From a virus (taxonomy: Duplodnaviria; Heunggongvirae; Uroviricota; Caudoviricetes), in the IMG/VR virus record IMGVR_UViG_2541047873_000005: a DNA stretch of 47,737 nt; one strand, written 5' to 3'. The stretch's first letter is position 1; each line of letters opens with the position of its first letter. The notes beneath the pieces are model-generated. The model was not told the origin of the DNA. It made no database searches and was given only the letters and a program-made list of their open reading frames with translations. The position numbers were made by a program, and so were the translations under genes. This document shows positions 1 through 47,737 of the stretch, piece after piece.

Positions 1-1284
1 TTACAGACTTCTTGAAGGTTGCGCAGCTGTTACAACACGCGGTTGATCTTCCGCGGCATCTTCCAGTGCACTTAAATCACGGTCTCTCACTTCTGGCATT
101 TTCAGCGCAGAGATTAAACCAATCACTGAATATGCCATGATCATAATGGCGATCGGATACCAGGATTCCGTCATGGTGCAGAAAATACCCGCCAGGATAG
201 GACCAAAACCGGAAGCGATAAGACCACCAATTTCTTTAGAAATCGCCATCCGGGTAAAGCGGTTTTTACAGCCGAACATTTCTGCCATGGTAATGTTTTC
301 CAGAGCAAATAATCCCAGCACCGCACAGTTATGAATCACAATCAGTGCAACCATAATGGTGCTCGGGGCATAGCTTTTATCTACGATGATAGAAAGCATT
401 GGCCACGCCAGCACAATCGCAGAGGTATTCATAATAATATACGGGATCCGGCGACCTATTTTATCGGATAACCAACCAAGGAACGGAATGGTCATAAAGC
501 CGAGAATCGAACTGATCATCAATGCATCTGTTGGAATTGCTTTGTTAAACAATAACGTCTGCACTAAATAGCCTGCAAGGAAAGTCTGAATTAAACCGGA
601 GTTACCAGCCTGACCAAAACGCAGCCCTGTTGCCAGCCAGAAGGATTTGCTCTGGAACATGCTACCAGCAGGTGCAGGTTTTGCTGTCGGTTGGTTGCTG
701 TCGTTAACCTTCTCAAAGACCGGGCTTTCTTTCAGATTCATACGCAACCAGATAGCAAAGACCATCACGACAACGCTCGCCAGGAACGGTATACGCCATC
801 CCCACGCAAGCAGTTCCTCTTTACTGAGAATGAAGAACATAAAGGCCCAGATTGCCGTTGCGCTCAAGGTTCCGCAGTTAGTCCCCATAGCAACAAATGA
901 GGAGATAATTCCGCGCTTACCTTTTGGTGCATATTCCGCCAGCATCGTGCCGGCACCGGAAATTTCCGCGCCTGCCCCCAGCCCCTGAATAATACGCAGC
1001 GTCACCAGCAAAATTGGCGCAAACACACCAATTTGTGCATAGGTCGGCAGCACACCAATTAAGGTAGTACAGATCCCCATCATAGTGATGGTAATAAAGA
1101 GCACTTTTTTACGCCCGATTCTGTCGCCCATTTTGCCGAAAATAAATGCTCCGACAATACGCGCCACATAACCTGCACCGTAGGTTCCCATTGCCAGAAT
1201 TAACGCCATTGCCGTTGATGATTCAGGAAAAAATATTTCATGAAACACTAACGCTGCGCCGAGCGAATATAACTGGAAATCCAT
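1..1284 (-). CDS. ydfJ: MFS family metabolite/H+ symporter (YdfJ-like), apparently 5'-truncated at the prophage junction
   Basis: 427-aa ORF with MFS signature GxLxDRxGRKK and multiple hydrophobic helices; aligns to ShiA/KgtP-type transporters from about residue 30; in-frame stop two codons upstream of the ATG. Confidence 0.75.
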   Translation of the reverse strand: MDFQLYSLGAALVFHEIFFPESSTAMALILAMGTYGAGYVARIVGAFIFGKMGDRIGRKKVLFITITMMGICTTLIGVLPTYAQIGVFAPILLVTLRIIQGLGAGAEISGAGTMLAEYAPKGKRGIISSFVAMGTNCGTLSATAIWAFMFFILSKEELLAWGWRIPFLASVVVMVFAIWLRMNLKESPVFEKVNDSNQPTAKPAPAGSMFQSKSFWLATGLRFGQAGNSGLIQTFLAGYLVQTLLFNKAIPTDALMISSILGFMTIPFLGWLSDKIGRRIPYIIMNTSAIVLAWPMLSIIVDKSYAPSTIMVALIVIHNCAVLGLFALENITMAEMFGCKNRFTRMAISKEIGGLIASGFGPILAGIFCTMTESWYPIAIMIMAYSVIGLISALKMPEVRDRDLSALEDAAEDQPRVVTAAQPSRSL

Positions 1285-2069
1285 AATTCACAGGTGTTTT
1301 TTCCCATCCTGTGGTTTCCTTGGCGTTTTCTAGGTTTTTTCAGATAGTTGCATTTTTTAAAAAGCATCCTAAGTTCGATCTCAGTGTCTATCTGGGGCCT
1401 ATTTCTGTCCCATATATGCCCCAAAAAAACTCCCCAACAGATAAGTAGTTTTTTCATGGATTTATGCGTAAAATCAAGAACGGCTGGAAATCATTCAATA
1501 CTCACACTATCGAAAAATTTACCAGCCAACCGCAGCACGTTCTTGCATAAGGCGTGTCTGCGGTTTTTCAACTATTCAGATACATCACTCCCATCACATT
1601 CATTCCTCCGCATCAAAGGCATATAGGCTATATCACCTTGATATTTTTCTTCTTCAGATAAAAACTGTTATCTATGTATACTTTTAAACCCAATCCGTGT
1701 AGAGTCTCTGCATAAGATAGTTTGCAGTTGCCGCTTCAGCTTGCGCCATAAACCGCCTGATTTTTGCTGCCACCTGTTAGCATTCCTGTATACCTGAAAC
1801 GACAATGTTTATCTACGAACTTTAAGAACACCCAAGATAAAAATTGTCAACTATATCATATATAACACATTACTAATTCGAGGCTATATGAACAGCATAC
1901 TGATAATCACTTCTCTCCTTATCATATTCAGCATTTTTAGTCATGCCCTAATAAAATTAGGGATTGGCATATCCAATAACCCAGACAAAACCGATGTATA
2001 AGCCAACATATCCTGAATCAGACATACAATATCGCAATGAAAATCAATAATATTTTAAGGAATATCTTC

Positions 2070-2303
2070 ATGAAATCAAAAGACACCCTAAAGTGGTTCC
2101 CTGCGCAGCTTCCTGAAGTAAGAATTATCCTAGGGGATGCTGTAGTGGAAGTAGCAAAACAGGGAAGACCTATCAATACCAGAACATTGCTTGATTACAT
2201 TGAAGGAAACATAAAGAAAAAATCATGGCTGGATAACAAAGAATTATTACAAACAGCGATATCAGTTCTTAAAGACAACCAAAATTTAAATGGTAAAATG
2301 TAA
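2070..2303 (+). CDS. ydfK: Prophage protein YdfK (cold-shock-induced, DUF)
   Basis: 77-aa product MKSKDTLKWFPAQLPEVRIILGD... matches recalled K-12 YdfK; AAGGA RBS 10 nt upstream of internal ATG (ORF track start 2037). Confidence 0.7.
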   Translation: MKSKDTLKWFPAQLPEVRIILGDAVVEVAKQGRPINTRTLLDYIEGNIKKKSWLDNKELLQTAISVLKDNQNLNGKM

Positions 2304-2619
2304 TATAATAAACTTACTTTTTTATCATTTTTCCACTTTAACAACATTTTGCTCCACTTTTCCACGACCAAACAACTTGAAATCTGGTTAAAATAACACG
2401 CAACACTATTCTTCTTCCTTGAGTCCGCCCGGAACTCGAAAAACAAACCGAGTTAAAGCCATTTTTCACAAAATCGATTTTGGGTCTCACCAAAATTACG
2501 GGGTTGCATACGCATTCGTTTATTTTCGAACGTGTACATACAAATATGTACAAAAATAATCAAAATTATTTTCTGAGATGCATTATGATATGAACACCAA
2601 TTTCGTATAGAATCTCACT

Positions 2620-3210
2620 ATGTCTCGAATTTTTGCTTACTGTCGGATATCAACGCTGGATCAGACCACCGAAAATCAACGCCGGGAAATCGAAAGTGCA
2701 GGTTTTAAAATCAAACCTCAGCAAATAATCGAAGAACACATTAGCGGCTCAGCAGCAACCAGTGAGCGTCCTGGTTTTAACCGGTTGCTTGCTCGCCTGA
2801 AATGTGGTGATCAATTGATTGTGACAAAACTGGATCGCCTTGGTTGTAATGCAATGGATATCAGGAAAACAGTGGAACAACTGACCGAAACAGGTATCAG
2901 AGTGCATTGCTTAGCATTGGGGGGCATTGACCTGACCAGTCCAACAGGAAAAATGATGATGCAAGTAATTTCAGCAGTCGCTGAATTTGAACGAGACCTT
3001 TTACTTGAACGCACTCATTCCGGGATAGTAAGAGCCCGCGGCGCAGGGAAACGTTTTGGTCGACCACCTGTGTTAAATGAAGAACAGAAACAGGTGGTAT
3101 TCGAACGAATTAAGTCAGGTGTAAGTATAAGTGCCATTGCCCGGGAATTCAAAACCTCGCGGCAAACCATTTTAAGAGCCAAAGCAAAACTTCAGACACC
3201 TGACATATAA
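2620..3210 (+). CDS. pin: Serine recombinase, Pin/resolvase-invertase family
   Basis: 196 aa; N-terminal catalytic motif YCRISTLDQ (Ser nucleophile) and C-terminal HTH; lies next to tail fibre genes as pin does in e14/Qin. Confidence 0.8.
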
Positions 3211-3307: not shown

Positions 3308-3883
3308 CTACGGCAGTGCTGGCCATTCAATATCCTGTGCAGTTGACGTATCAACACGGTTCAGCAATACCCGATACTTTTTCCATGCTTCCAGCAACGA
3401 GATTTCTTCCTCCGTTGCAATTTCCAGATCTGCAGCATCCTGAAGCGGCGCAATATGCTCACTGGCTACCTGCATCAGGTTGTTTTTTGTTTCTTCCGCC
3501 TCCCGGATCCGGAACAGTTTTTCTGCTTCCGTATCCTTCACCCAGGCTGTGCCGTTCCACTTCTGAAACTCCCCTTCCGGGGATAACCAGGTGACATTTT
3601 CCGGTAATGGGCCAAGTTCAGAAATAAATAACGCGTCGCCGGAAGCCACGTCATAGACGGTTTTACCCCGATGATCTTCAACGAGATGCCACGATGCCTC
3701 ATCACTGTTGAAAACAGCCACGAAGCCAGCCGGAATATCTGGCGGTGCAATATCGGTACTGTTTGCTGGCAGACCTGTATGAGGCGGAATATATGCGTCA
3801 CCTTCACCAATAAATTCATTAGTTCCTGCCAGCAGATTATAAATTTTTATGGTCCGTGGTTGTTCACTCATTCTGAATGCCAT
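3308..3883 (-). CDS. tfa: Tail fibre assembly protein Tfa
   Basis: N-terminus [20 protein letters not shown] matches lambda Tfa along its length; ATG overlaps the stf stop (TAATG). Confidence 0.85.
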
Positions 3884-6798
3884 TATGCAAGCCTCACAAT
3901 GTAGTTAAATGCGATGTTTTTGACAGTGTTTTCCGCGTTACCAGCAGCGTTAACGGTGATGGTGTGTCCATGTGAGCCAATCGCAACAGAGTGCGTATGA
4001 GCACCAATACCGACAGTATGTGCGTGAGCACCTGCAGATGCAGCTGTGCCGCTGACACTATGAGTGTGCGCTCCTGCAGCACTTGTATTCACACTGGCCG
4101 CAGACACTACCTTATGTACTGACCCATTTTGTGACCACTGGCTGACTGCTGATGCGCCTGTGACACTATGAGTATGGTTTCCGGCACTTGCGGCTGTACC
4201 GCTCACACTGTGCGTATGCGCCCCGGTGTTATTCGTGGATTTAGTGCCGTAATCAAACGACGATGTGGTTTTCGTCCCCAAATCCGTACTGGATGCACTG
4301 GCGCTGTGGGTGTGCGATTTAATGCCGTCCTGTTCCTGAGACAATACGGCCCGACCACTGGCAGGTTTGCCCTTAATCGTCCAGCCACGCATATCAGGGA
4401 TCACGCCTGACGGATAAGCGGTTGCAAGTTTCGGGTAAGCGGATTTGTCAAAAGTCTGCCCCTGCATCAGGGCATAACCAGACGGAACGGTATCTGATGG
4501 CCACGGGATTGGTGCGCCAGGCGGATAAAACTGCTCTGATGGCGTATAGAGTGAATAAACTGTACCGTCCGTTAACCCTTCCGGCTTATTAGCAGAATAT
4601 GCTGGTGACGTATGAATAGTCACGCTGGCATTACTGGTATAATCCCATTGAATATTTACACCAGTCGCATAATTTCCGATTGCAACGTAAATATCGTAAG
4701 TATCACCAGATGTATTGACCCAGGCAAAATTTGTAAACCCTGTCGATGTGCGCTGCCATAAAGCACCAGTAATCCCCTTCGGATTACCATTACCTGCACG
4801 CAAAACAAGTTCAGATATACCTGCCTGTTGAGGTGACCCCACGTTAAATCCCGCGCCACCAATCAACGTAATTGAAACAACAGAACTCGCCTGTGGCATG
4901 GTTACCGTTGCTAATTTGAACCAACCAGCACCACCGCTGAATGACATTGTTGTTGAGTTAAGCGTACCAATATCTTTCGGCGTCAGTGTTATATCCGCTG
5001 AAAGCGCCTTACCATTCACCTTACGGGCAGAAGGTACCCGACCATTCGCATTATCATTAGCTGCTTTCACTGCTTTCGGTGTCGCGGCAAGCGTTTCAGA
5101 TGCGCTGTTGGTTGCACTACTGAGCTGGACAATTCCTTTTTGTGCTGTCGTAGCGTCCTGAGCAGTATATTTCCCGTTAGCAAGGTCATAGGCTGCCTTT
5201 ACCGACTTTGGCGTTGCCGCCAGCATTTCAGATGTGCTGTTGGTCGCGCTGCTGAGCTGAACTATCCCTTTTTGTGCTGTCGTTGCATCCTGTGCGGTGT
5301 ATTTCCCGTTAGCCAGCTCATACGCGGCCTTAACGGCTTTTGGCGTTGCCGCCAGTGACTCGGAAGTGCTGTTAGTCGCACTGCTGAGCTGTACTATCCC
5401 CTTTTTCGTCGTGCTCGCATCCTCAAGCGCCACGGCGGATGCAATATCCTCTGCCCGTTTTGCCGCTGTCTCGGCGCGCGTTGCCGCGGATTCCGCCGTA
5501 CTTTTGCTCTGAGCTGCCGCCGTCGCACTGCCAGCTGCCTCTGTCGCCTTCGTGGATGCCGTCGTGGCGCTGCCCTTTGCTGCTGACGCCTGTCTGGTCG
5601 CCTCATCTTTTGAAGCAGACGCAGATGATGCCGATGACGCCGCCGAACTGGCGGACGATGCGGCAGCCGTTTTTGAGGATTCTGCGCTGGTTTCCGACGC
5701 TTTCGCGTTCGTCTCGGATGTCTTCGCTGCGGAAGCAGACCTCGCTGCTGCGCTGGCCTGTTCAGTGGCTTCGCCAGCCTTCGTTGTGGCTGTTGAAGCG
5801 GACGATGCGGCGCTTTCTGCCGATTTTCCGGCAGCGGTGGCACTGGCTGAGGCCTGCCCGGCACTTGTTGACGCGGCACTGGCAGACGACGCAGCCGCTG
5901 TTTTTGAGCCTGCCGCAGCTGAGGCGCTCTGTCCCGCTGCCGTCTCAGAAGACCTGGCGTTCGTCTCGGACGTTTTTGCCGCCTTCGCGGAATTTGCTGC
6001 CGCCGTTGCCGAGGAAGCTGCGCTACTGGCGCTCGAGGATGCGTTCGTTTCTGATGATTTTGCCGCCTCTTTTGAAGCCGACGCATCCCGGGCTGAGGTG
6101 GCAGCTTCTGACGCTTTCGTGGTCGCGGTGGATGCAGAAGTGGCGGCTGATTGTTGTGACGCTGCAGCATTCGTTTCTGACGTTTTCGCGGCAGCGGCAC
6201 TGGTAGCTGCCGCGCTTTTTGAGGACTCTGCAGCGGCAGCACTTTTTTCCGCTTCAGTGGCCTTTGTTGATGCCGTTCCTGCGCTGGAAGACGCTGACTG
6301 AGCCGACGAAGCGGCCTGTCCGGCTGACGTGCTGGCTGCACGTGCTGAATCTGCAGCATCAGTCGCATGGGTTGCCGCCTCACGGGCAGATGTGCCGGCA
6401 TCACTGGCTGACTTCTTCGCGGCTGCCGTGTTCTGTGCCACCACGGACGCGTTACGCGCCACCTCTTCCACCATCTGTTCAAAACGGCGCAGTGCCTCCG
6501 GACGGGCATCATCCTCCGTCATGGCACCGAGAAAATCATTCAGCGTACCGGGTTGAGAATCTTCATACACGGTGATGGTCCCGGCATGTGACGGCGGGAA
6601 TCCTTCCACCAACAGAATAACGCTGTACTGCCCGTACTCAACGTCCATGCTGTAACGCCCGGCTTCATCCGGATTTTCTGAGGCCAGCGTGTTCACCACC
6701 ACCGTGGTGCTGTTACGTTTTGCTTTCAGCTGGATTGTGCAGTTCTGTACCGGTTTTCCTGTGCCGTCTTTCAGTACACCTGAAATCTTTACTGCCAT
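3883..6798 (-). CDS. stf: Side tail fibre protein Stf
   Basis: [27 protein letters not shown]-terminus and [23 protein letters not shown]-terminus as in lambda Stf; Ala/Ser/Thr-rich middle, three 40-aa tandem repeats, His-rich GAHTHS C-terminal repeats; ATG at 6798 (track ORF begins at alternative start 6804). Confidence 0.85.
5040..5410 (-). repeat. Three tandem ~120-bp repeats inside stf encoding [28 protein letters not shown](E/D)[15 protein letters not shown]
   Basis: Near-identical DNA units seen directly at about 5100, 5220 and 5340; coordinates approximate. Confidence 0.7.
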
Positions 6799-6805
6799 AT
6801 TCACC

Positions 6806-35146: not shown

Positions 35147-35935
35147 AGCCTGCTTCTCCTTGCCTTTCGGCTCGTAAGAGGCTAACCTACATGTGTCTAG
35201 CATGAAATTGGCCTCAGATTAATGTTAAGCGTCTTGCAGGACGCGTAATGTTAACTGGGGCTTTTCTCTATCTGCCTTTGGTGTTCATGCCCGAGGCAGA
35301 TAGCCTCAAGCACCCGCAGCCATTCTACTTAACTACCGTTACCTCGCCAATATGAAATCAGTCAGAAAGGCGATCCATAAGAACAATAGCAAGACAATAA
35401 ATCGCCATTACAGCCGTAATAGCCAGCGCACATTTGAGAACCAGCACCACAACCTCCTGTATTGGACGTAGACCAGTCCTGATGAATATGAGGCTGTCTC
35501 GTCAGTGATTCAATACAACTATTGGGTATAGTTTCTCTGATTTTTTCTGTGGAAATGGGGCACAACCACTAGTCACCACCAGCACTTCTTTTAATACGCA
35601 AAGTCCGACACAAGCTAACCTTCTAGTCCGCTTTGAGCGAAAAACAGCCATAATTTAGTGCCACGTATATAATGATAGAGCTATTCAAGCTAGCAATTCA
35701 CATGTAAAAATTCAGAGGGTAGAAGCACATAGTTATAAATGTTGGCTCCATCGACAAATTGCGGTCTCAAGTACATTTATTAATGTTGCCCCCGCATTAA
35801 CAAATCATCAAGGTGACGACATGGACGATATTAATATCAGCCTCGACGAACTTAACACTATTGATTTATCCCCCTTAATCCTGAACCGCCCCGGGAATCC
35901 TGGAGACTAAACTTCCTGAGAAAGAGGTAAACAGG

Positions 35936-36262
35936 ATGACTAAAAATACTCGTTTTTCCCCCGAAGTCCGTCAACGGGCAGTCCGTATGGTTCTGGAAAG
36001 TCAGAGCGAATATGACTCACAATGGGCGACAATTTGTTCCATTGCTCCAAAGATTGGCTGTACGCCGGAGACTCTGCGTGTCTGGGTTCGCCAGCATGAG
36101 CGGGATACCGGGGGCGGTGATGGAGGGCTCACCACCGCTGAACGTCAGCGTCTGAAAGAGCTGGAACGTGAAAATCGTGAACTGCGCCGCAGTAACGATA
36201 TCCTTCGCCAGGCTTCCGCTTATTTTGCGAAGGCGGAGTTCGACCGCCTCTGGAAAAAATGA
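35936..36262 (+). CDS. IS629 transposase OrfA (HTH)
   Basis: 108 aa [37 protein letters not shown]...; ends next to an A6 run usable for -1 frameshift into orfB. Confidence 0.9.
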
Positions 36263-37149
36263 TGCCACTGCTGGATAAGCTGCGTGAGCAGTACGGGGTC
36301 GGACCGCTATGCAGCGAACTGCATATTGCCCCGTCAACGTATTACCACTGTCAGCAACAGCGACATCATCCGGATAAACGCAGTGCCCGTGCGCAGCGCG
36401 ATGACTGGCTGAAGAAAGAGATACAGCGCGTATACGATGAAAATCACAAGGTATACGGTGTGCGTAAAGTCTGGCGTCAGTTGTTACGGGAAGGTATCAG
36501 AGTGGCCAGATGCACTGTGGCACGTCTCATGGCGGTTATGGGACTTGCCGGTGTTCTCCGGGGTAAAAAGGTCCGTACGACCATCAGCCGGAAAGCCGTT
36601 GCCGCAGGCGACCGCGTAAACCGTCAGTTCGTGGCAGAACGACCTGACCAGCTGTGGGTGGCTGATTTTACTTACGTCAGCACATGGCGGGGCTTCGTCT
36701 ATGTGGCGTTCATCATTGATGTGTTTGCCGGATACATCGTGGGGTGGCGGGTCTCATCGTCCATGGAAACGACATTCGTGCTGGATGCACTGGAGCAGGC
36801 GTTATGGGCCCGTCGACCGTCCGGCACGGTCCATCACAGTGATAAAGGTTCTCAGTATGTATCGCTGGCCTACACACAGCGGCTTAAGGAAGCCGGATTA
36901 CTGGCATCAACAGGAAGTACAGGCGACTCGTATGACAACGCGATGGCGGAGAGCATCAATGGTCTTTACAAAGCGGAGGTAATACACCGTAAGAGCTGGA
37001 AAAACCGTGCAGAAGTGGAACTGGCCACACTCACGTGGGTGGACTGGTATAACAATCGACGATTGCTGGAAAGGCTGGGCCATACTCCTCCGGCAGAAGC
37101 AGAAAAAGCTTATTATGCTTCCATCGGAAACGATGATCTGGCAGCCTGA
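36259..37149 (+). CDS. IS629 transposase OrfB (DDE integrase core)
   Basis: 296 aa, -1 frame overlap with orfA; DDE motifs (WVADFTY..., HSDKGSQY..., DNAMAES). Confidence 0.9.
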
Positions 37150-37385
37150 GTTCACAGATAAAACACTCTCCAGGAAACCCGGGGCGGTTCATCCAGAGTA
37201 AGCTGCCAGTTACCTGCTTTGATATCACAAAGTATCTTTCTAGCCTAGGTGATGGAAGAGCGGAGATAAGACTGCTAACCCATATTTGCGGTTTTCACTT
37301 TCGTCCCGAAAATCCACAGGTACCATTTGGTCCGTGCTTTCAAAGCAGCCAAGGTAGATCTGCAATTCCGGATGACATTAACGGG

Positions 37386-38921
37386 TTGTCGCTGGAGGTA
37401 CTTTCTCAATTTTGCCCGACGATAGAGCTACCCGAACTTCAAGCTCGTATTGCTGATACACTTTGGGTTCGTAAAATTGGTGGAATCCGTTTTCCTTTGC
37501 TGGCAGTCCGTGCTTATTATGCGTCCAGTATAGCTATTATGACATCGCAAGGGACGTGGGTTAGTGCTTTAGAACGCCTAGAGCGTGCGCTTAGGCTGTG
37601 TTGTTTTTTTCGAAAGAATACTGATTTCAGGGATGAATTTGATCAGCTTTCGGCACATCTACTAGCAGAGTATGAACGTACCAGAGAACAAGGCGATTCA
37701 CCTTATCCGCTGCGACTCCTGCAACTCGATATCGACTGTAAAGTGAGTGAGCCATCTTTTATTGCCCAGGAACTCCTGTTTCTGACAAAAAACTATCTGG
37801 CTCAAAAATTATTTTCATTTGCCGTCGATGCCTGTAAAACCGCAATCACGATTGCGAATAGGTGCTGTGACAGAGATACACAGTTTGAATTCTGGCGGCT
37901 TCTTGCCGATACACATCTGGAAGAGTCAAAATTCCAAGATGGCGGTATGATTTCGGCAGCCTGCATGCAGAATGCTATTGAAGCACTGGCTAATATTCCA
38001 GGAACCCGAATAGAACGTCTTGCGCTGTATGAAGAAATGCGTGATTACCAAATCGAATCCCGTCACCAGATGTCTATCCTTCAGTCTCCCCCTCAAGATA
38101 TTAGTGAGATTGTCCATCAAGCCAAGAGTCGGGTAGTCGGAAGAGATATGTTTGATATGGTTTTCAGACTTGCGATGCTGGTCTGTCGGCCAACCAGCAT
38201 TGAGAGACTTAAGGCTCAAGCAATAGAACAAAAGGCCAACAGCATAGCTTGGATGTTTGGATCAACACATATTGATCATGAGGGAATGACACTTGCTCGC
38301 ATACCCGCAGGATTGGGGATTGATGATGCAAATGGGGCAGTTATTTGGCCCATAATGATGACGAGAATGCGTATCGACCATGAGTTGGCAGTAGCTGGGC
38401 AAATTATTCCTGCTACAGATGAGATCACAATGAAATATCCAATCTCGGAGGCGTTTTTTCGCGATATGTTCATCAATCATCCCTTCATCCCGTTTGGGCA
38501 TGAAGAGTTTTTCATCAAGGGTATGGTTTGCGGTTTCAATGGAGATTTTATGACGGCATGCCACGTGTTGATTCCCCAGATCGAAAATAGTCTGAGATAT
38601 GTGGCTAAAATTAAAGGTGAGGAACCATCGCAGCTTCACGGGGACGGTTCGCAAGAGCGAAATGGACTCAAGGGATTACTAGATAATCCACTGATTATTG
38701 AAGCTTTCGGCGTAGACATAATTGGCAATCTTCAGGCCTTACTGGTAGATAAAATCTATGGTGATTTACGAAATCAACTAGCTCACGGATATGTGCCTGC
38801 CGGTTACTACAATCAACCTCCCTGCATTTTTGCATGGTGGCTTGTATTGCACATTCTAATGAACCCTACGGCGAGATACTGGCAAGCCACTTATGGCCAA
38901 GAGAGTGAGGCTCAGACTTAA
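37386..38921 (+). CDS. 3' fragment (511 codons) of the IS629-disrupted gene
   Basis: Track ORF from TTG at 37386; contains DLRNQLAHGY near the C-terminus (about 38768..38785). Confidence 0.5.
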   Translation: MSLEVLSQFCPTIELPELQARIADTLWVRKIGGIRFPLLAVRAYYASSIAIMTSQGTWVSALERLERALRLCCFFRKNTDFRDEFDQLSAHLLAEYERTREQGDSPYPLRLLQLDIDCKVSEPSFIAQELLFLTKNYLAQKLFSFAVDACKTAITIANRCCDRDTQFEFWRLLADTHLEESKFQDGGMISAACMQNAIEALANIPGTRIERLALYEEMRDYQIESRHQMSILQSPPQDISEIVHQAKSRVVGRDMFDMVFRLAMLVCRPTSIERLKAQAIEQKANSIAWMFGSTHIDHEGMTLARIPAGLGIDDANGAVIWPIMMTRMRIDHELAVAGQIIPATDEITMKYPISEAFFRDMFINHPFIPFGHEEFFIKGMVCGFNGDFMTACHVLIPQIENSLRYVAKIKGEEPSQLHGDGSQERNGLKGLLDNPLIIEAFGVDIIGNLQALLVDKIYGDLRNQLAHGYVPAGYYNQPPCIFAWWLVLHILMNPTARYWQATYGQESEAQT

Positions 38922-46170: not shown

Positions 46171-46422
46171 ATGAGCGAAGTAATCATGATTGTCTCTCCC
46201 GGCAAATGGGTATCCGAAGAGCAGTTAATTGCGCTGAAAGGAATAAAAAAAGGTACGTTAAAAAAGGCCCGGGAAAAATCGTTTATGGAAGGAAGGGAAT
46301 ATAAGCATGTCGCTCATGACGGTATGCCATGGGATAACAGTCCATGCTTTTACAACCTGGAAGAAATTGATCGCTGGATTGAGCGCCAGGCATCAGCAAG
46401 ACCAAGACGTCATCTTACTTGA
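46171..46422 (+). CDS. xis: Excisionase-like protein
   Basis: 83-aa ORF immediately upstream of the integrase; position-based, weak sequence support. Confidence 0.45.
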   Translation: MSEVIMIVSPGKWVSEEQLIALKGIKKGTLKKAREKSFMEGREYKHVAHDGMPWDNSPCFYNLEEIDRWIERQASARPRRHLT

Positions 46423-46441: not shown

Positions 46442-47737
46442 ATGAGAGAAGTTGAAATGAAATATCCGACAGGCGTGGAAAACCATGGAGGGAAATTACG
46501 TATCTGGTTTGTTTATAAAGGCGTAAGAGTCAGGGAAAACCTGGGGGTTCCTGACACAGCAAAAAACAGGCGCGTTGCAGGTGAGCTACGCGCCTCTGTT
46601 TGTTACGCAATAAAAACTGGTGTTTTCGACTATGCAAAACAGTTTCCCTCCTCACGCAATCTGGAAAAATTTGGTGAGGCCCGACAAGATTTAACCATAA
46701 AAGAACTGGCTGAAAAATTTCTGGCACTGAAAGAAACTGAAGTCGCAAAAACATCACTCAACACATACCGTGCCGTCATCAAAAATATCCTGAGCATAAT
46801 CGGTGAAAAAAATCTTGCCTCATCGATTAATAAAGAAAAATTACTGGAGGTTCGTAAAGAGCTACTGACTGGATACCAGATCCCCAAAAGTAACTATATT
46901 GTTACACAACCAGGGAGATCGGCTGTAACTGTAAATAATTACATGACAAATCTTAACGCCGTGTTCCAGTTTGGTGTTGATAACGGTTACCTGGTAGATA
47001 ACCCGTTTAAGGGGATCTCGCCATTAAAGGAATCAAGAACCATTCCGGATCCTCTTTCGCGGGAGGAATTCATCCGTCTTATCGATGCGTGCAGAAATCA
47101 GCAAGCCAAAAATTTATGGTGTGTTTCTGTTTATACTGGCGTTCGCCCTGGTGAGCTGTGTGCACTTGGATGGGAGGACATAGATCTGAAAAATGGAACA
47201 ATGATGATCAGGAGAAATTTAGCAAAAGACCGTTTCACGGTACCAAAAACACAGGCGGGAACCAATCGGGTCATTCATCTTATTAAGCCAGCAATCGACG
47301 CTCTCCGGAGTCAGATGACATTAACGAGACTGAGCAAAGAGCATATCATTGATGTTCACCTCAGAGAGTATGGCAGAACAGAAAAACAAAAATGCACCTT
47401 TGTTTTTCAACCTGAAGTGTCAGCGAGAGTAAAAAATTATGGTGACCATTTTACCGTTGACTCAATAAGGCAGATGTGGGACGCAGCGATAAAACGTGCC
47501 GGACTCCGCCATCGAAAATCATATCAGTCGAGACATACTTATGCCTGCTGGTCGCTGACAGCTGGTGCTAACCCGGCATTTATAGCAAACCAGATGGGCC
47601 ATGCAGATGCGCAAATGGTATTTCAGGTATACGGAAAATGGATGTCTGAAAACAATAATGCACAGGTAGCTTTGTTAAATACACAGTTAAGCGAGTTTGC
47701 CCCAACCATGCCCCATAACGAAGCAATGAAAAATTAA
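46442..47737 (+). CDS. int: Tyrosine integrase (phage integrase family)
   Basis: 431 aa; catalytic-domain motifs near C-terminus (SRHTYACWSL, GHADAQMVFQVYGKWM with catalytic Tyr); at prophage right end. Confidence 0.85.
   Translation: MREVEMKYPTGVENHGGKLRIWFVYKGVRVRENLGVPDTAKNRRVAGELRASVCYAIKTGVFDYAKQFPSSRNLEKFGEARQDLTIKELAEKFLALKETEVAKTSLNTYRAVIKNILSIIGEKNLASSINKEKLLEVRKELLTGYQIPKSNYIVTQPGRSAVTVNNYMTNLNAVFQFGVDNGYLVDNPFKGISPLKESRTIPDPLSREEFIRLIDACRNQQAKNLWCVSVYTGVRPGELCALGWEDIDLKNGTMMIRRNLAKDRFTVPKTQAGTNRVIHLIKPAIDALRSQMTLTRLSKEHIIDVHLREYGRTEKQKCTFVFQPEVSARVKNYGDHFTVDSIRQMWDAAIKRAGLRHRKSYQSRHTYACWSLTAGANPAFIANQMGHADAQMVFQVYGKWMSENNNAQVALLNTQLSEFAPTMPHNEAMKN

Follow-up and report, generated by a model that had tools for sequence, protein, structure and literature searches.

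What is the open reading frame at the left edge of this prophage-bearing DNA: a complete bacterial gene that happens to border a prophage, or the remains of a longer gene that a phage has cut in two? The DNA that we analysed, hereafter the window, is the entire 47 737 nt of IMG/VR record IMGVR_UViG_2541047873_000005. Its first bases are the stop codon of ydfJ, and the ORF that they close, on the minus strand at 1..1284, encodes a 427 aa protein with the N-terminus MDFQLYSLG. According to the original prediction, made from the letters of the window, this YdfJ-like protein is N-terminally deficient and its gene was truncated by a prophage junction, with phage sequence starting directly upstream of it. 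We therefore begin with the state of the locus in Escherichia coli strains in which no prophage interrupts it.

The first 2400 nt of the window were matched in all 5426 complete E. coli genomes of our collection, and a large class of them ceased to match at window position 1290. Two strains, ST131 strain 751 and WP8-S18-ESBL-07, provide the empty site (attB). Both have the gene order dcp-ydfG-rspR-ydfZ-ydfI-ydfJ-rspB-rspA, in which rspA, rspB, ydfJ and ydfI share a strand and follow one another head to tail, and in both ydfJ is 1368 nt long and encodes 455 aa. The window agrees perfectly with the two empty sites until ...GGAAATCCATAA and is unrelated to them after the TTCA, beyond which phage genes follow, as predicted. 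The Met with which the window ORF opens is thus an internal residue of the empty-site protein, where it is preceded by 28 extra residues (MTIEKHERSTKDLVKAAVSGWLGTALEF) encoded by 84 in-frame nt; the full-length gene starts 28 codons further upstream, rather than at the same Met. The window ORF, designated ydfJ' here, accordingly comprises the last 427 codons of a gene that has 455 when intact. Over its 1284 nt, ydfJ' is 100 % identical to ydfJ of the prophage-free strain WP8-S18-ESBL-07 (4001..5284 of its locus), compared with approximately 35 differing sites in the K-12 and O157 alleles. This identity to an empty-site allele suggests that this lineage gained its prophage recently.

The missing 5′ portion of the gene, together with a direct repeat, was predicted to lie beyond the integrase gene, outside the window. 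Although the window does not reach past the int stop codon, its segment 45000..47737, which contains the 3′ part of an exonuclease gene, xis and int, is 100 % identical in many genomes, among them GN05505 and 118UI. In both of these genomes, rspB is found 188 nt after the int stop codon (equivalent to window position 47737) and is followed by rspA. The sequence past int in GN05505 consists of 37 nt of phage DNA, then GAAATCCATAAATTCA, then the 5′ part of ydfJ, which agrees with the empty site throughout as far as its ATG, a 57 nt spacer and rspB. A second copy of the att core is therefore located 38–53 nt beyond the position of the window end, ahead of a 28-codon ydfJ 5′ fragment. The core copy and the fragment, at 38–130 nt past the int stop, were read in both GN05505 and K-12; the annotation of 118UI places rspB as far beyond int as it is in GN05505. 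On the minus strand, GN05505 carries a 36-codon ORF (MTIEKHERSTKDLVKAAVSGWLGTALEFMDFKSHEC) that matches ynfP of MG1655 in position and length.

Within the window itself, no second copy of the core was found, either as a 16-mer with up to three mismatches or as an exact 11-mer, and the 11-mer GAAATCCATAA occurs once where 0.03 copies are expected. With a single core copy in the window, the reciprocal site (attR in chromosome coordinates) is not inside it, in line with the original prediction, and the sister genomes indicate that in the window element, too, this site probably lies just past int.

To fix the position of the junction independently of chance, we relied on a four-way comparison between the window junction, attB (ST131 strain 751), the right junction (GN05505) and attP (PhiR42_1, HannyBb and mEp460_ev081). 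The sequences read cttGAAATCCATAA-TTCAcagg in attP, ctgGAAATCCATAAATTCAagcg in attB, ctgGAAATCCATAA-TTCAcagg at the window junction and cttGAAATCCATAAATTCAagcg at the right junction. An 11 bp identity, GAAATCCATAA, at window positions 1276..1286, constitutes the common core shared by attP and attB, and strand exchange must fall inside it. The comparison with attP assigns the adjoining TTCA, at 1287..1290, to the phage. The attP of all three phages reads GAAATCCATAATTCAcagg, whereas attB and the right junction read GAAATCCATAAATTCAagcg; the phage TTCA resembles the ATTCA of attB minus one A, and the imperfect direct repeat extends to 15 of 16 nt. An att site had been placed at about 1285..1300 by the original prediction. 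That range takes in the boundary between bacterial and phage DNA (1286–1291), but the core proper is further to the left, at 1276..1286 if exact identity is required or at 1276..1290 if a 1 nt gap is allowed, and is mostly contained in the first three codons of the ydfJ' ORF.

Free phages provide the unintegrated counterpart of the two junctions. When the two phage-side flanks were joined to form a synthetic attP of 852 nt, this sequence was contiguous over all 852 nt in PhiR42_1, HannyBb, mEp460_ev081 and Tritos, at 98.8–99.9 % identity, and the core was as predicted in three of the four. In Tritos, the attP (approximately 1938..1952) has a C-to-G change in the 11 bp core (GAAATGCATAA), which would create heterology with attB in the region of strand exchange. 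Part of the synthetic attP is also present in Stx2a-converting phages, at approximately 90–93 % identity: the int 3′ end, the core and the arm to position 711. All four free phages have the integrase of the window element, followed in them by a contiguous attP; they differ from it in being unintegrated genomes, with early and immunity regions that are mosaic and only partly shared.

The two sides of the core differ in the extent of their att arms. The long arm, distal to int and equivalent to the P arm (1291..1440, plus strand), is contiguous with the core in the free phages and is conserved for approximately 150 nt among otherwise different prophages. One block of this arm, TGTCCCATATATGCCCC (1406..1422), does not vary even in the divergent O157:H7 arm, where similarity fades after approximately 1440. 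The short, int-proximal arm, equivalent to the P′ arm, starts at 47698..47718 on the plus strand (repeat family D1) and, in the GN05505 sequence, continues for 37 nt beyond the window end before the second core copy is reached. Candidate arm-type Int sites are predicted on the plus strand at 1406..1414 (TGTCCCATA) and 1417..1425 (TGCCCCAAA) in the long arm, and at 47709..47717 (TGCCCCATA) within the int 3′ end. The pattern TGYCCCAWA, which was derived from these same three sites, occurs in the window at 1406, 1417 and 47709 only, a count of three that is not above chance (1.9 expected). All three copies are within approximately 150 nt of the att core, and by this clustering and by their conservation they are plausible arm-type Int-binding sites. 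Because the long arm points away from int and the short arm lies beside it, as in lambda, the window junction, situated at the far end from int with the tail genes and the long arm beside it, is an attR-type (P-O-B′) site in lambda nomenclature; the name attL that the original prediction gave it is valid in window or chromosome coordinates only.

The element bounded by these junctions spans approximately 46.5 kb, from window position 1276 to 37 nt past the window end, when counted in the manner of the MG1655 annotation, in which the left core is included in full and the right core not at all. We identify it as an mEp460-like lambdoid prophage of full length that uses the integrase and att module of Qin, and not as the Qin remnant of K-12. 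From the junction inward, the phage genes are ynfT, ydfK, a pin invertase, a tail-fibre assembly gene and a tail-fibre gene, and the element contains a complete lambda-like structural module. At its other end, an 83 aa excisionase is encoded at 46171..46422 (plus strand), an open frame annotated as ‘excisionase family protein’ in the segment-identical genomes. The tyrosine integrase gene that follows (46457..47737, plus strand) encodes 426 aa as annotated, although its ORF is open from 46442, and its stop is the last codon of the window; the protein has the Pfam domains Arm-DNA-bind_2 (PF12167, 5.7e-24) and Phage_integrase (PF00589, 4.1e-18). The left half of the window is covered by mEp460_ev081 to 95 % at 97.7 % identity, compared with 61 % coverage at 95.2 % identity for the other, early half. 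That early half is mosaic, with 61–73 % coverage by the best-matching phages HannyBb, PhiR42_1, Tritos and mEp460_ev081.

The Pin-type serine invertase gene (Resolvase and HTH_7 domains; 2620..3210, plus strand) adjoins the tail-fibre assembly gene and the 973 aa tail-fibre gene at 3308..6804 (minus strand), an arrangement that is that of pinQ and tfaQ in K-12. PinQ-mediated inversion has been linked to phage defence in a 2025 paper (PMC12529663).

An IS3-family element resembling IS629/IS1203 occupies 35882..37191 of the window; it is 1310 bp long, with 25 nt terminal inverted repeats, and encodes orfA (35936..36262) and orfB (36259..37149). Sister prophages are 1313 bp shorter and have, at the position of the insertion, an intact gene for a 595 aa DUF4209 protein, which the IS splits in the window, so that a remnant ORF is left at 37386..38921. 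Among the complete E. coli genomes of the collection, none carried an IS at this position of the prophage. Most sister copies measure 46 424 bp between the ydfJ stop and the int stop. The figure is 47 623 bp in 2017C-4173W12, an excess of 1199 bp that is the size expected of an IS5 with its target duplication and probably represents one; in GN05505 it is 48 400 bp, an excess made up of the same 1199 bp and of 777 bp for an IS1B annotated near ydfK. This span arithmetic suggests that CP030768 and CP095526 have undergone independent IS insertions in otherwise identical prophage copies.

The left edge of the window is thus, in our judgement almost beyond doubt, one of the two junctions produced by integration of a phage into ydfJ, and the sequence of events reads as follows. 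A lambda-type temperate phage, a full-length mEp460-like relative of Qin, integrated into ydfJ by site-specific recombination inside the 11 bp core, between attP and codons 28–31 of the gene. The exchange parted the last 427 codons, and ydfI downstream of them, from the first 28 codons and from the upstream, same-strand rspA-rspB; the integration puts 46.5 kb between rspB and ydfJ'. The phage-derived TTCA after the core sets a TGA in frame one codon 5′ of what had been the internal Met29. The leftover ORF has come to resemble a free-standing gene, albeit one deprived of its N-terminal tail, probably of about half of its first transmembrane helix (TM1), and of a Shine–Dalgarno sequence.

How much of the protein is lost can be estimated from profile alignments. 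YdfJ' scores 453.5 bits against TIGR00883, above the curated cut-off of 443.45, which makes it a member of the MHS (metabolite:H+ symporter) subfamily of MFS transporters (NCBIfam), but its alignment starts at profile position 7, whereas the 455 aa protein scores 462.9 bits and aligns from position 1. The other models tell the same story: residue 2 of YdfJ' aligns at position 37 of 438 in the ShiA model and position 40 of 500 in the ProP model (NCBIfam), compared with starts at positions 12 and 22, respectively, for the 455 aa form, and the Pfam MFS_1 alignment begins at profile position 33 rather than 2. By the profile starts in these four models, the 427 aa YdfJ' does not possess a complete N-terminus that includes the whole of TM1. 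From the profile alignments and a reading of the ShiA and ProP N-termini, the truncation probably takes the cytoplasmic N-tail and roughly the first 13 residues of TM1, that is, about half the helix. The original prediction that the first transmembrane helix is missing therefore stands for its N-terminal part only. A Kyte–Doolittle scan of YdfJ did not resolve TM1 (the peak reached only approximately 1.1), and a PDB sequence search with full-length YdfJ for TM1 boundaries returned no match at E≤1e-5.

A protein shortened in this way is probably non-functional, or its gene not expressed. The best-surviving alternative, which we nevertheless consider unlikely, is that ydfJ' is still expressed from phage-side transcription and yields a transporter that functions despite its shortened N-terminus, so that integration would have altered the gene without inactivating it. 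Every lysogen examined has kept the ORF intact, with its ATG, the product is still over the TIGR00883 cut-off, and the RNA of K-12 ydfJ changes upon DicC induction, so that some transcript exists. Among six alleles, dN/dS was 0.00–0.06 between lysogens, taken as no higher than between two empty-site strains (0.03), but low values such as these are uninformative on function, because the insertion is recent and an empty-site allele with exactly the sequence of the window copy exists. Against continued expression, there is no Shine–Dalgarno-like sequence 5–12 nt upstream of the ydfJ' ATG (ccugugaauuAUG), and a promoter and terminator scan of 1150..2700 found no minus-strand promoter-like site between 1285 and 2050, its yield as a whole not exceeding shuffled expectation; the ydfJ promoter has been reported as lost (PMC6379469), and the apparent removal of half of TM1, as judged from the ShiA and ProP alignment, also speaks against a working transporter.

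The in-frame stop bears on the question of whether integration accounts for everything at the junction. On the minus strand, ydfJ' is preceded by TGA (1290..1288) and ATT before the ATG (1284..1282), the stop two codons upstream of the start to which the original prediction had drawn attention. The host reads ...GAA TTT ATG (E F M) here; the phage att has one A fewer, and the frame is shifted to TGA ATT ATG for that reason. It could instead be supposed that the missing A and the TGA arose by mutation after integration, as pseudogene decay, since the two copies of the repeat differ by a 1 nt indel (15 nt in the window versus 16 nt at the other junction). This is extremely improbable, and is refuted by the AA form already present in the attP of free phages, alongside the AAA of attB. 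Moreover, all lysogens examined have AA at this junction, including K-12, O157:H7 and a chicken isolate that harbour different prophages, as would be expected if the crossover lay to the left of the A run. On the sequence evidence, the stop codon arose directly from recombination, through the sequence of the phage att, and not through decay. Because the crossover lies left of the A run, precise excision would be expected to rebuild the AAA allele and, with it, an intact, in-frame ydfJ of 455 codons.

We give practically no credence to the reading in which the 427 aa ORF represents native ydfJ in its entirety and the prophage lies harmlessly in the ydfJ–rspB intergenic region, as the ordinary CDS annotation in many RefSeq records and the SE11 genome paper (a 46.8 kb lambda-like prophage at this locus, with its site given as ‘between ydfJ and rspB’ and no duplication; PMC2608844) would have it, since it is refuted by the longer in-frame gene of the empty-site strains, while the extra 28 residues lengthen the ShiA, ProP and MFS_1 matches, the ydfJ 5′ fragment is found at the other junction, and PGAP labels several ydfJ copies ‘missing N-terminus’.

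Integration into ydfJ, the reading that we favour, also agrees with what has been described for cryptic prophage Qin. Qin is recorded at ydfJ in strains W, K-12, B and Crooks (PMC3032704), and Qin is inserted at the 5′ end of ydfJ with the loss of 28 codons and the promoter (PMC6379469). In the MG1655 annotation, Qin occupies 1632277..1652745, and its first base corresponds to window position 1276; ydfJ (b1543) is a 427 aa CDS ending at 1632285, and ynfP (b4534) a 36 aa CDS beside rspB. The K-12 copies of the core are at 1632277..1632291 (left) and 1652746..1652761 (right). These coordinates coincide with the window junction, and bear out the statement in the original prediction that Qin splits an ancestral ynfP/ydfJ gene. 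From at least 45 nt left of the core to at least 45 nt right of it, K-12 and the window have the same junction sequence at every base, window positions 1..2400 are matched at 98.1 % identity, and K-12 Qin shares with the window element the core, the 427 aa ORF, the ynfT, ydfK, pin and tfa genes, and rspB as the right neighbour. The two elements are nevertheless unlike in completeness: K-12 Qin is a 20.5 kb remnant in which int is disrupted beside an IS2 (the intQ pseudogene), whereas the window element, at approximately 46.5 kb, has intact int and xis and a full structural gene set. What we describe is an ordinary Qin-site junction, a phenomenon that is already known, described and annotated.

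The organization of the integration module is also that of phage lambda, in which a tyrosine recombinase with an N-terminal arm-binding domain is encoded next to xis, int is transcribed towards att, the common core is short, and the longer arm extends away from int. The lambda common core is 15 bp long; in the window element the core identity is 11 bp, the int stop is 37 nt from the core, and the arm-type sites are candidates. Another difference lies in the target, which is intergenic, between gal and bio, for lambda and inside a coding sequence for the window element. Site-specific integration of lambdoid prophages into the end of a host gene is shared with e14 and Rac: e14 in icd leaves a duplicated pseudo-icd′, and Rac in ttcA alters the N-terminus of TtcA (PMC6379469). 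Unlike these two, the window element brings no phage replacement for what it displaces, and ydfJ loses its N-terminus while the phage contributes an in-frame stop.

To gauge how frequently the site is occupied, we probed the complete E. coli genomes with a 334 nt sequence spanning the uninterrupted site. An uninterrupted ydfJ site was present in 2009 of the 5426 genomes, leaving approximately 62 % without it, and in the remaining genomes that were sampled the probe match nearly always ended at the last base of the core. The ydfJ site is a major integration hotspot. In other E. coli the same ydfJ core has been taken by other lambdoid prophages; that of the O157:H7 strain FWSEC0004, for example, carries a DinI-like gene and NleG and DUF1076 effector genes beside the junction (locus 3785..6746).

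The genes that the prophage separates reportedly form a cluster, rspAB/ydfJI, that catabolises L-gulonate; a literature search on this pathway returned no usable report. One could imagine that an intact prophage at this position acts as a reversible switch (‘active lysogeny’) on the sugar-acid catabolic cluster rspA-rspB-ydfJ-ydfI, an idea that we regard as a long shot. Precise excision would be expected to rebuild an in-frame, 455-codon ydfJ rejoined to rspAB and, were the idea true, the frequent occupation of the site and the lack of decay in ydfJ' could reflect selection for restorability, or a residual function of the shortened protein. The value of our analysis lies mainly in correct annotation. 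The 427 aa ydfJ is best treated as an N-terminally truncated gene, and fixing the prophage boundary to the base should aid the delimitation of prophages at a site that is commonly occupied in E. coli.
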